Positions 14,850 to 22,174 of a DNA stretch of 22,174 bases are shown here, piece by piece. The notes under the pieces are model-generated. The model had not been told where the DNA came from, searched no databases, and saw nothing but the letters and a program-made list of their open reading frames with translations. The first letter of the stretch is position 1; every line of letters starts with the position of its first letter. The translations under genes were made by a program, and so were the position numbers. Source of the stretch: an uncultured archaeon (GTDB lineage: Archaea; Asgardarchaeota; Thorarchaeia; Thorarchaeales; CAZPUN01); contig CAZPUN010000054.1 of the NCBI GenBank assembly GCA_964589775.1, positions 1 to 22,174 of the forward strand. Direction: 5' to 3'.

Positions 14850-15920
14850 ATGCTTACGGGGATGAGTATTAAAAACTTCCGAGGAATTAACAAAGGAAAT
14901 CTAGATAGATTCGGAAATGTAAATATTTTATTGGGTCCTAACAATTCCGGAAAATCCACAATTCTTGAAGCTATTTATTTAGCAAGTACAGCTATATCTA
15001 AAAATGATCTATTGAATCGAATACGTATAGAATATTTAGCAGACAGACGGGTAAAAAGAAAATATCGGCTTTTTGATTCATTATGGTATAAATATAAAAC
15101 AACAAAACCAATTCAATTAATATTAACATTGGATAATGAAAATTCGTTTACATTTGAATCATTTAAAGAAAATGAGACAATGTTTACATACTTGAATCTA
15201 GAAAATAGATATTTTATACGAAACTCAAGAATATGGCAAGAATACAAAATTGTTGATAATGTACCACATTTCAAACAACAAAACTATACTATTGAACGAT
15301 TATCTAGTATTTTTAAAATATCAAAAAAAGCATTAAAAAATCTAATTAAAATGTTATCTGCTTCAGTCATGATTGATCCTTTTATAATTAATTCATTTAA
15401 TGAAATTGAAGAAAATTTATGGTTCAAAATCATTGCAGAACGGATCGATAAGAAAATCGTGAAAACCATAAATTCATGCTATAATATGAATATTGAGAAT
15501 TTTTCATATTTTAAAATTGGCCCAGGTTATAGTTTGGCAGCCTTATTACCGACTCATTCAGTCCGACTTGATGAGATTGGCGATGGCGTAAGAATGAGTG
15601 TTGCAATGATAACTATTGCATATTTAATAGAAAATAGTATTATACTTTTGGAGGACCCAGAAACCCATCAACATATTCGAGCTCTTAAAGAGATAATGAG
15701 CACATTACTTAAAGTGTCAAAATCTCAAAATAATCAAATATTTATATCAACACACAGTCTTGAACTTACCAAGGAGATTGTTAATTTGAGTTTTAGACTT
15801 GATATAGATTTAACAATATTTGGTATAACTCTTGATAATGGAAATCTTAATGTAAGAACAATTAAAAAAGAAGATGCGAAAAATTTGTTAGAAGTAGGTG
15901 AGGACATACGTATAATATAA
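14850..15920 (+). CDS. ABC-type ATPase (AAA_15/AAA_21; OLD/AbiEii/AriA-like) of a two-gene ATPase-TOPRIM module
   Basis: I.NFRGI, Walker A GPNNSGKST, degenerate signature IGDG, Walker B/D-loop ILLEDPETHQH, H-loop QIFISTHS, C-terminal G.DIR. Confidence 0.9.
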   Translation: MLTGMSIKNFRGINKGNLDRFGNVNILLGPNNSGKSTILEAIYLASTAISKNDLLNRIRIEYLADRRVKRKYRLFDSLWYKYKTTKPIQLILTLDNENSFTFESFKENETMFTYLNLENRYFIRNSRIWQEYKIVDNVPHFKQQNYTIERLSSIFKISKKALKNLIKMLSASVMIDPFIINSFNEIEENLWFKIIAERIDKKIVKTINSCYNMNIENFSYFKIGPGYSLAALLPTHSVRLDEIGDGVRMSVAMITIAYLIENSIILLEDPETHQHIRALKEIMSTLLKVSKSQNNQIFISTHSLELTKEIVNLSFRLDIDLTIFGITLDNGNLNVRTIKKEDAKNLLEVGEDIRII

Positions 15921-21154: not shown

Positions 21155-22042
21155 ATGAGCCAAATACCAATGATGGAGTTGGTCATTATATCACAGAAGA
21201 GAATCACAGATTGGCATGAACTTTTTATCAAGGTTATAAGCGGAAATAGATCATGGGAGGTAATACAAGAATATGAGATCTCATCAACTCGAATCGACGT
21301 CATTATAAAAAAGATAAATGAAGATAGTTCTGTTAATGACCTATTAAATGATTATTTATCGTTAGTTAATATTATAGAATACAAATCATTTTGAGAAACA
21401 CTAACATTACCTGAATTTTTCAAAACCCTTGGAAAATTCTTTCTATACATTTCAAAAATATCTCAAGAAGAAGTAGACAAATCATCAGTTATTTTCATAG
21501 TTACACACATGCCTCAAAAATTGATGAATTCAAAATATTTCAAGATGACAGAAGTTAATACAATTGAAGCGGGCGTTTATGAATTAAAAAATGTAATTAA
21601 TCAATTCAAAATTCATCTAATAGTCATAAACCAATTAAATATAGAGGACCGAACATTTAACTTGCTAAAATTCTCAAGAGGAAAAGCTAAACGAAACTTT
21701 ATTAATTTTCTCGTGAATCATATAAATGAAGAAAAATATGCAAGGGTCTTAACAGAATGCTATATAATAGACCCACAGGAGACTATTGAAATGAGCCATG
21801 GCGAAGTTATGCAACTTGTTTCGGTAAATGATAATATAAGATACGCTATTGAAAAAATTGGGCTCGAAAAAGTTATTAATGCCGTAGGGCTCGAAAAAGT
21901 TATTGAAACAATGGGTATTCAGATCTTCTTTCAAATTCCAAAAGAAAAAATGTTCAAGTTAATCGACGAAGCTGAATCCGAAGGAAAAATAACTAAAGAA
22001 ATAGCAGATAAACTAAGAGAACTTTATAGTTTAATGCCATAA
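21155..22042 (+). pseudogene. PD-(D/E)xK nuclease-like (Rpn/transposase-like) gene interrupted by one in-frame TGA
   Basis: The two track ORFs share one frame: ...DWHELF...RIDVIIKK...NIIEYKSF*(21392-21394)ETLTLPEFFKTLGKFFLY...VIFIVTHMPQKL...EAGVYEL...LIVINQL. The D...ExK motif is intact. Start uncertain (ATG 21155, 21170 or 21173). Confidence 0.82.
21791..22042 (+). CDS. Putative intragenic small protein (83 aa) from an internal start; C-terminal repeat domain of the nuclease
   Basis: AGGAG (21777-21781) lies 9 nt before in-frame ATG 21791. The downstream stand-alone copy starts at exactly the equivalent codon. Confidence 0.5.
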   Translation: MSHGEVMQLVSVNDNIRYAIEKIGLEKVINAVGLEKVIETMGIQIFFQIPKEKMFKLIDEAESEGKITKEIADKLRELYSLMP

Positions 22043-22174
22043 AAAATTAAAAACAATATAACACCTACAAAGGTAATAGTAAAGATGAATAATAAAAGTT
22101 CTCCACAACTTGTTTCGGTAAATGATAATATAAGATACGCTATTGAAAAAATTGGGCTCGAAAAGGTTATTAAT
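21812..22174 (+). repeat. 69-bp direct repeat (21812-21880 and 22106-22174; second copy cut by the window edge) plus an internal 27-bp-period repeat
   Basis: 68/69 identical, with one synonymous A21871/G22165 difference, offset 294. GGGCTCGAAAAAGTTATT occurs at 21860-21877 and 21887-21904. Confidence 0.97.
22085..22174 (+). CDS. Partial ORF: stand-alone copy of the nuclease C-terminal domain
   Basis: MNNKSSPQLVSVNDNIRYAIEKIGLEKVIN... is open to the window edge; AAAGGT SD-like sequence at 22069-22074. Confidence 0.7.
   Translation, partial: MNNKSSPQLVSVNDNIRYAIEKIGLEKVIN

Follow-up and report, generated by a model that had tools for sequence, protein, structure and literature searches.

A candidate gene-within-gene nuclease locus with a second, separately encoded tail in an Asgard archaeon

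A tail-encoding frame occurs twice at the end of the contig

The stretch of DNA analysed here, referred to as the window, is the whole of contig C54 (22,174 nt) from an Asgard archaeal genome of 2.16 Mb with 35% G+C that is distributed over 64 contigs. Its right-hand end carries a long, stop-interrupted gene for a predicted PD-(D/E)xK nuclease with a C-terminal tail of nine-residue repeats, a small open reading frame (ORF) nested in frame within the 3′ part of this gene and, further downstream, a second, stand-alone gene for the same kind of tail (Table 1). A preliminary description of the region had listed the TGA-interrupted gene, the internal AGGAG with ATG 21791, the 83-aa product, a 42-nt spacer, a second start at 22085 and an offset of 294 nt between the two starts, and all of these coordinates proved to be correct. 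The spacer (22043–22084) lies between the stop codon of the long gene and ATG 22085, and the 294 nt separate the latter from the internal ATG 21791. The 69-nt direct repeat that the two frames share is identical at 68 positions, which is far beyond chance, and the lone change, AAA to AAG, is synonymous and leaves Lys in place. The first seven codons are unlike (MSHGEVM in the ORF starting at 21791, MNNKSSP in the ORF starting at 22085). Both the near-identity of the repeat and the differing first codons had been described before and were re-derived from the sequence.

The second copy occupies the last 90 nt of the contig, and an assembly artefact therefore had to be excluded. A search of other assemblies for the 293-aa protein encoded next to the locus led to an independent MEGAHIT contig in ENA (ERZ27262694 k141_377113, locus L066) that agrees with the window at each of the 1020 nt from position 21155 onwards, the TGA and the G at 22165 among them, and that extends 79 nt past the end of the window in frame with the sequence AVGLKKIIDTVGLKKIIDTVGLEKII. 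On this contig, the second ORF remains open for 56 codons and contains the further units GLKKIIDTV, GLKKIIDTV and GLEKII, such that the second gene has at least four nine-residue units as compared with two in the first copy. As the additional units differ from GLEKVINAV and GLEKVIETM, the second gene is a diverged paralogue and not the first copy read again. The preliminary description had itself named a contig-end artefact as a possible flaw, and the position of the second copy at the very end of the contig, with the repeat as its last sequence, as well as a scaffold-gap duplicate at another locus (L044, see below) could be taken to point that way. However, a unique junction of 63 nt precedes the second copy, the independent contig agrees and adds 79 nt of differing units, and the same architecture is found in a genome assembled in ten contigs (G312), all of which makes an artefact hardly conceivable. 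The second tail copy is real and, as originally proposed, it is a gene of its own, whose start codon is homologous to the one at 21791.

The 3′ end of the second gene is probably contained in positions 1–90 of contig C16; the first 59 nt of this contig are identical to 21962–22020 and are followed by its own last codons and a stop. A bridge from C16 to the second gene via the neighbouring gene was not obtained, the available Logan contig starting later than C16, and the exact junction pattern was not found among JGI metagenome contigs. More cassettes had been suggested to follow; in the available sequence, only one extra cassette is visible, with no sign of an array.

Judged by its relatives, the long gene of the window is a pseudogene that arose through a TGG to TGA change and is truncated two codons past the E-x-K motif. 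Codon 80 specifies Trp in the paralogue on contig C18 as well as in the homologues P0002, P0003 and P0004, and the same TGA is present in three assemblies, i.e., the window, the ENA contig and a Logan contig from SRR8542060. Consequently, the locus as it stands is unable to make the full-length nuclease. Stops are also present in several relatives from other genomes. A reading of the TGA as selenocysteine or by a variant genetic code was rejected, because the relatives carry Trp at this position and the genome otherwise reads with table 11. If tRNA-Trp read through the UGA as a near-cognate codon, the ancestral residue would be regained, and small amounts of intact nuclease may thus be formed.

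A check for paralogues in the same genome, which the preliminary description had suggested, returned three or more additional copies. In one of them, 27-nt GLEKVIDAV units extend to the end of C18 and resume at the beginning of C59, so that the gene is divided between the two contigs (C18:54979–55113 and C59:1–130; L002, L005), another runs off the end of C3, and a divergent copy is located on C42. For the C18/C59 paralogue, five or more units were counted in this genome but three in ENA contig k141_59069 (P0003, L065), a difference that may reflect either true repeat-number variation or assembly collapse. Its orthologue is syntenic with L009 and L065. The divergent fourth paralogue (C42:323–1063, minus strand; L057) has AAGGTGA ahead of ATA-ATG at the position homologous to the internal start.

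Table 1. Positions of the features at the right-hand end of the window
Feature	Position	Strand	Basis
Long gene of an unannotated family, PD-(D/E)xK domain plus tail of 9-aa repeats, 295 codons, stop-interrupted	21155–22042	+	Translation
Catalytic-type motif: D48 (21296–21298), E75-x-K77 (21377–21385)	21296–21385	+	Alignments A1 and A2
TGA at codon 80, the sole in-frame stop; Trp (TGG) in relatives	21392–21394	+	Paralogue C18, P0002, P0003, P0004
TATATAATA, TATA-box-like, centre about 26 nt upstream of ATG 21791	21761–21769	+	Sequence reading
Internal Shine-Dalgarno AGGAG, ATG 21791 9 nt downstream	21777–21781	+	Complementary to 16S rRNA 3′ end GGATCACCTCCT
Nested ORF, 83-aa tail, candidate small antitoxin-like product; stop codon 22040–22042	21791–22042	+	Start-column conservation, stand-alone homologues
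69-nt direct repeat, copy 1	21812–21880	+	Repeat search
Two tandem 27-nt (9-aa) units, GLEKVINAV and GLEKVIETM	21860–21913	+	Repeat search
AAGGTAAT, Shine-Dalgarno-like, 7 nt upstream of ATG 22085, 6/8 match to GAGGTGAT	22070–22077	+	Sequence compared with 16S rRNA 3′ end
Stand-alone second tail gene, 3′ end past the contig	22085–22174	+	ORF; hmmalign places its Met on the conserved start column
69-nt direct repeat, copy 2 (68/69)	22106–22174	+	Repeat search

Translation signals at the internal start

The 16S rRNA of the organism ends with GGATCACCTCCT, such that AGGAG, GAGGTG and AGGTGA are all true Shine-Dalgarno (SD) cores. An AGGAG at SD distance is a rare feature of internal in-frame ATG codons in the long ORFs of this genome (0.36% of 9463), and even the shorter GGAG is found ahead of only 1.6% of them. 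In four close genes, GGAG is located 9 nt ahead of a start-capable codon, which is ATG in the window and in L009, GTG in the C18 paralogue and TTG in L008, and the synonymous sites around the GGAG vary freely among these four genes.

A search of the phylum yielded 35 full-length Asgard genes, for which the column homologous to the internal start was mapped back to the DNA. The codon in this column is ATG in 15 genes, TTG in six, GTG in three, ATA in six, ATT in two and another codon in three, and thus capable of serving as ATG, GTG or TTG start in 24 of the 35. Where the column holds Leu, the codon is TTG in six of seven cases (17.5% background in the same genes). A correctly spaced SD match of at least 5 nt precedes the column in 17 of the 35 genes as compared with 4.2% for the remaining codons in these genes, with a binomial P of about 1e-14 that is overstated since the relatives are not phylogenetically independent. 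The bias extends to the codons that build these matches: Val three codons upstream is encoded by GTG in 16 of 17 cases against a background of 28%, and Glu four codons upstream by GAG in 19 of 21 against 39%. The notion that the position of the internal start is preserved, put forward in the preliminary description for the two frames of the window, thus holds across relatives at the nucleotide level for the start codon as well as for the SD. By the measure of this codon choice, the synonymous sites are evidently selected for a ribosome-binding site at the internal start, and the alignment provides strong evidence that many members of the family are likely to start translation at the internal codon.

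The element TATATAATA upstream of the internal SD could alternatively be an internal archaeal promoter, from which a leaderless mRNA for the small protein would be made instead of SD-led initiation. It is partly retained in close relatives via Tyr-Ile/Met codons.

A predicted nuclease family with a repetitive tail and its tail-only genes

The AlphaFold2 model of the long protein (pLDDT 80.8) contains an alpha/beta core that spans approximately residues 18–170. The best structural match of this core is NucS (2vld_B; Z 8.6, root-mean-square deviation 2.9, 99 aligned positions), followed by McrC (6hz4_M; Z 8.2), and further matches include Can2, Card1, FokI and XisH; nearly all of the top rows are PD-(D/E)xK nucleases. 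D48, E75 and K77 are invariant in alignment A1, and the 72 sequences of alignment A2 likewise share D48 and K77 without exception, with E75 conserved at 90% or more. The model and the alignments thus agree in assigning the N-terminal domain a PD-(D/E)xK fold with a D...(D/E)-x-K motif, for which catalysis is predicted. NucS/EndoMS, McrC, Can2/Card1 and XisH have the restriction-endonuclease-like core in common with the family (Z 6.5–8.6), but their accessory domains are unrelated and lack a repeat tail, so that the match is one of fold and not of function. The C-terminal third of the protein is all-helical, with each nine-residue unit modelled as its own short helix. When two copies of the tail module were predicted as a complex, the score was 0.10, which speaks neither for nor against binding.

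The family has escaped annotation. The window protein, its paralogues and 72 relatives have no match in Pfam, NCBIfam or PADLOC, none of these collections recognized a family among 32 tail modules, and a profile search of the family against PDB sequences was without a match. When 1.84 billion cluster representatives were searched with the family profile, on the other hand, 1952 relatives scored at E ≤ 1e-3, 570 of them at E ≤ 1e-10, and the named relatives among the matches come from metagenome-assembled genomes (MAGs) of Promethearchaeota. A search for related loci with alignment A5 yielded three archaeal loci. Two large proteins, P0087 (1064 aa) and P0104 (1365 aa), contain four to six separate stretches that match the repeat-tail part of the profile only, indicating that the module of nine-residue units is present in other architectures as well.

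Within the phylum, the family is found in 33 of 400 genomes and 24 of 85 genera, a patchy distribution with several copies in some genomes. Such a pattern could be that of a mobile element or transposase-like gene, the extra tail copy being a by-product of transposition, and it would fit this idea that copies lie at contig ends and that Rpn proteins, bacterial nucleases to which we return below, were formerly annotated as transposases. We nevertheless consider this very unlikely. Flanking terminal inverted repeats were not found, apart from weak AT-rich matches, the tandem repeats and the shared tail sequence are sufficient to explain the contig breaks, the orthologue of the C18/C59 copy is in syntenic position in L009 and L065, and PD-(D/E)xK proteins are not known as autonomous transposases (PMC10400984).

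Separate tail genes are not confined to the window. A hidden Markov model search of stop-to-stop frames in the fetched loci revealed a tail gene just downstream of the full-length gene in G053 (L045), with AAGGAG 9 nt ahead of its ATG and four units as compared with one in the long gene, and a downstream tail gene in the 10-contig assembly G312 (L046), with GGAG 6 nt ahead of ATG and three units as compared with two. The start of the small gene in L045 lies within one residue of the conserved column, and in L035 and L047 tail genes begin exactly at the conserved Met. The small genes of L045 and L046 are each closest to their own upstream gene, which means that the duplications are local and independent. 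An apparent downstream copy in L044 (G127:C92:5200–8800) was rejected because a run of N, i.e., a scaffold gap, is followed there by the same tail read a second time; this case calls for caution when cassettes are counted in scaffolded MAGs. In two loci, the nuclease and the tail are present as separate frames (L025:1468–2358 and L035:1498–2347). A TAA stands at the domain boundary in L025, while the two frames of L035 overlap, with that of the tail beginning at the conserved Met. Both cases may represent genes in decay or, alternatively, genuine two-gene forms.

The number of repeat units, which begin about 22 residues past the internal Met (Met213), is highly variable. In clusters at ≥ 90% identity, alleles differ only in whole nine-residue units, such as P0009 (329 aa) and P0276 (320 aa) with a difference of one unit, or P0010 (346 aa) compared with P0279 (319 aa) and P0277 (301 aa), which have three and five units fewer, counts that are subject to the caveat that short-read assemblers can collapse repeats.

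All of this could, in principle, be accommodated by an ordinary multidomain protein. In that case, the tail would serve in oligomerization or DNA binding, the Met, Val or Leu at the start column would be a buried hydrophobic residue, the downstream ORFs would be decaying partial duplications caused by slippage or recombination, and the small protein would have no function. Indeed, the residue in this column is hydrophobic throughout (M 33, V 14, L 13 and I 10 of 72 sequences), many copies of the family are fragments or contain stops, the long gene of the window itself being a pseudogene, and tandem repeats promote unequal recombination. A structural role of the residue does not, however, account for synonymous choices (GAG-GTG, CAG-GAG) that build an SD far more often than the background predicts, or for TTG as six of seven Leu codons, and decay does not readily account for the fact that, in three lineages, the downstream copies have open frames and their own SD, with an ATG that coincides with the homologous codon or lies close to it. 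We therefore regard this explanation as rather unlikely.

Comparison with Rpn and proposed function

A gene-within-gene arrangement of this type has been described for the bacterial Rpn systems. RpnL is a toxic PD-(D/E)xK nuclease (PMC10400941, Zhong et al. 2023; commentary PMC10400984), and RpnS is a small protein translated from an internal start that binds and inhibits RpnL (PMC10400941; PMC10400984). Four-residue repeats start 8–20 residues past the internal Met, and their number varies between strains and has to match for inhibition to occur (PMC10400941; PMC10400984). Second small copies, termed RpnSs, are located downstream, were each derived independently from their own upstream gene and are sometimes fused or lost (PMC10400941; PMC10400984); instances in E. 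coli are ypaA after rpnE and rpnCSs after rpnC (PMC10400941).

The Asgard family resembles RpnA-E of E. coli and the plasmid-encoded RpnP2 in that an N-terminal PD-(D/E)xK nuclease is joined to a helical tail with an internal start at the domain boundary, in that short tandem repeats follow about 20 residues past the internal Met and vary in number among near-identical alleles, and in its patchy, multicopy distribution. As with the pairs rpnE-ypaA and rpnC-rpnCSs, a tail-only gene lies downstream in the window, L045 and L046, and is most similar to the tail of its own long gene, which argues for local duplication, independently in different lineages. Unlike these pairs, the archaeal downstream copies carry more units than the long gene, and the long gene in the window is broken. 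The elements of an Rpn-type architecture, namely signals for an internal start, hypervariable repeats and an optional downstream copy, can thus all be recognized in the sequences of the family.

There are also clear differences from the E. coli proteins. The Asgard family, known from sequence alone, does not match PF04754, PF27070 or PF14261; its motif is E-x-K (IIE[FY]KS), whereas RpnA and the Rpn-like genes of Asgard archaea have E-H/V/I-Q-S; and its units comprise nine residues (27 nt), each modelled as its own short helix, whereas the four-residue units of Rpn lengthen one long helix. The assignment to a different PD-(D/E)xK subfamily, made in the preliminary description, agrees with the presence of the fold and of D48, E75 and K77 and with the lack of a match to the Rpn model of Pfam. 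A six-frame search of the whole genome likewise gave no match to PF04754, which scores above cut-off in two of the 400 Asgard genomes. Genes closer to the canonical Rpn type are present in other Asgard genomes (L073:847–1845, minus strand; L070:1435–2370; L072:1408–2301). They have weak PF04754 scores, the motif E-x-Q-S-T-N-D and long runs of the four-residue units KEGM or KEGI, with at least 11 units in L073, from which it follows that both the four-residue and the nine-residue version are present in the phylum. They share phylum, size and layout with the family of the window and differ from it in the four-residue repeat and the E-x-Q motif. When alignment A2 was compared with these three genes by hhalign, the result was borderline (E 0.0014, probability 17%), with the core motifs in register. 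A comparison of the family with a single RpnA sequence gave no match, and neighbours in a protein language model, which we take as a lead only, include DUF4351 and HTH_Rpn_C clusters. Remote homology between the Asgard family and Rpn is plausible on these grounds.

Taken together, we think that the window locus is probably a degenerate member of an archaeal family built in the manner of the Rpn gene-within-gene toxin-antitoxin systems and that the downstream gene would provide an extra tail protein. According to this proposal, the long gene encodes a predicted DNase of the PD-(D/E)xK type joined to a helical tail of nine-residue tandem units, and translation from the conserved ribosome-binding site and start codon inside the gene, where the two domains meet, would produce the tail alone, a protein of about 83 aa. 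By analogy to RpnS and RpnL, the small protein would hold the nuclease in an inactive state by binding to the corresponding module of the long protein, and the number of repeat units would, again by analogy, determine how small and long proteins are matched. The gene at 22085 would be a locally duplicated, separately translated tail gene with expanded repeats, the counterpart of RpnSs/ypaA in E. coli. Since TGG has become TGA just past the E-x-K motif of the long gene, the locus would yield two small proteins at most. Translation and binding of the small protein, toxicity, neutralization, a decoy or donor role and an antiviral role are all candidate functions suggested by this analogy.

Several observations weigh against the Rpn-like proposal. 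In 11 of the 35 genes, the start column holds a codon not commonly used as a start (ATA, ATT, GTC, CTG, TGG), and 18 of the 35 do not have a clear SD. The window long gene is a pseudogene, and the neighbourhoods of the examined loci are ordinary and not those of defence islands. PF04754 (Transposase_31, COG5464) does not match the window protein, its paralogues or the 72 relatives; the 32 tail modules have no match to PF27070 (HTH_Rpn_C) or PF14261 (DUF4351) at E ≤ 1; and a Foldseek search with the model of the 83-aa tail returned helical matches at chance level only and no RpnS-type structure. The hhalign comparison of A2 with a low-diversity alignment of E. coli-type RpnA gave E 0.1 and a probability of 0.6%. 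Finally, the downstream copy exceeds the adjacent long gene in units in all three cases (at least four vs. two, four vs. one and three vs. two), and under the Rpn rule (PMC10400941) this mismatch would block neutralization of the adjacent long protein. The downstream copies may instead serve other paralogues, represent former or future tails, or follow a differing unit rule.

The unit mismatch would also be less of a difficulty if the small protein were not an inhibitor but complementary to the nuclease, whether as an essential subunit or a specificity factor, in the way that Cas11d serves Cas10d, or as a regulator that binds DNA. Genes within genes with complementary function are known (PMC10400941), and none of our observations indicates the direction of the effect. 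The whole set of Rpn-like traits, however, comprising a nuclease, hypervariable repeats after the Met, downstream copies, a patchy multicopy distribution and long genes that are often inactivated, suits a restrained toxin better, and a complementary role appears quite unlikely to us.

Building on the Rpn-like proposal, we put forward a bolder version only tentatively. This large, unannotated family, which comprises Asgard members and many metagenomic proteins whose source is unknown, might have reached the Rpn solution independently or by extreme divergence. Its nuclease toxin might be policed by its own tail, with the count of nine-residue units as the pairing barcode, and the expanded downstream tails might form a reservoir for tail swapping and re-tuning or for cross-protection against paralogues. 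Such a reservoir would explain why the downstream genes have higher unit counts than the adjacent long gene.

The idea of a spare cassette, put forward in the preliminary description, is not without precedent, as stand-alone downstream RpnSs genes have already been published for E. coli (PMC10400941), and so has the architecture of RpnL, RpnS and RpnSs as such (PMC10400941). What is new here is an unannotated, mainly Asgard family with the Rpn-type gene-within-gene layout and nine-residue repeats. If our proposal is true, the gene-within-gene design of toxin and antitoxin is not peculiar to bacterial Rpn but recurs in a family to which current models are blind, and it does so in the archaeal lineage closest to eukaryotes, whose defence systems have been little explored. 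A second, structurally different repeat barcode, made of nine-residue helical units, would also become available for studying how repeat number relates to partner specificity. More generally, nested genes that are missed by annotation pipelines can be searched for by a nucleotide-level signature in which synonymous codons build an SD and a start-capable codon is present at a domain boundary.

About 5 kb away from the locus, the window contains an ORF of 356 aa (14850–15920, plus strand) with matches to AAA_15/AAA_23 ATPases in the precomputed Pfam record of the same gene on L066, an ATPase type that is frequent in defence systems.

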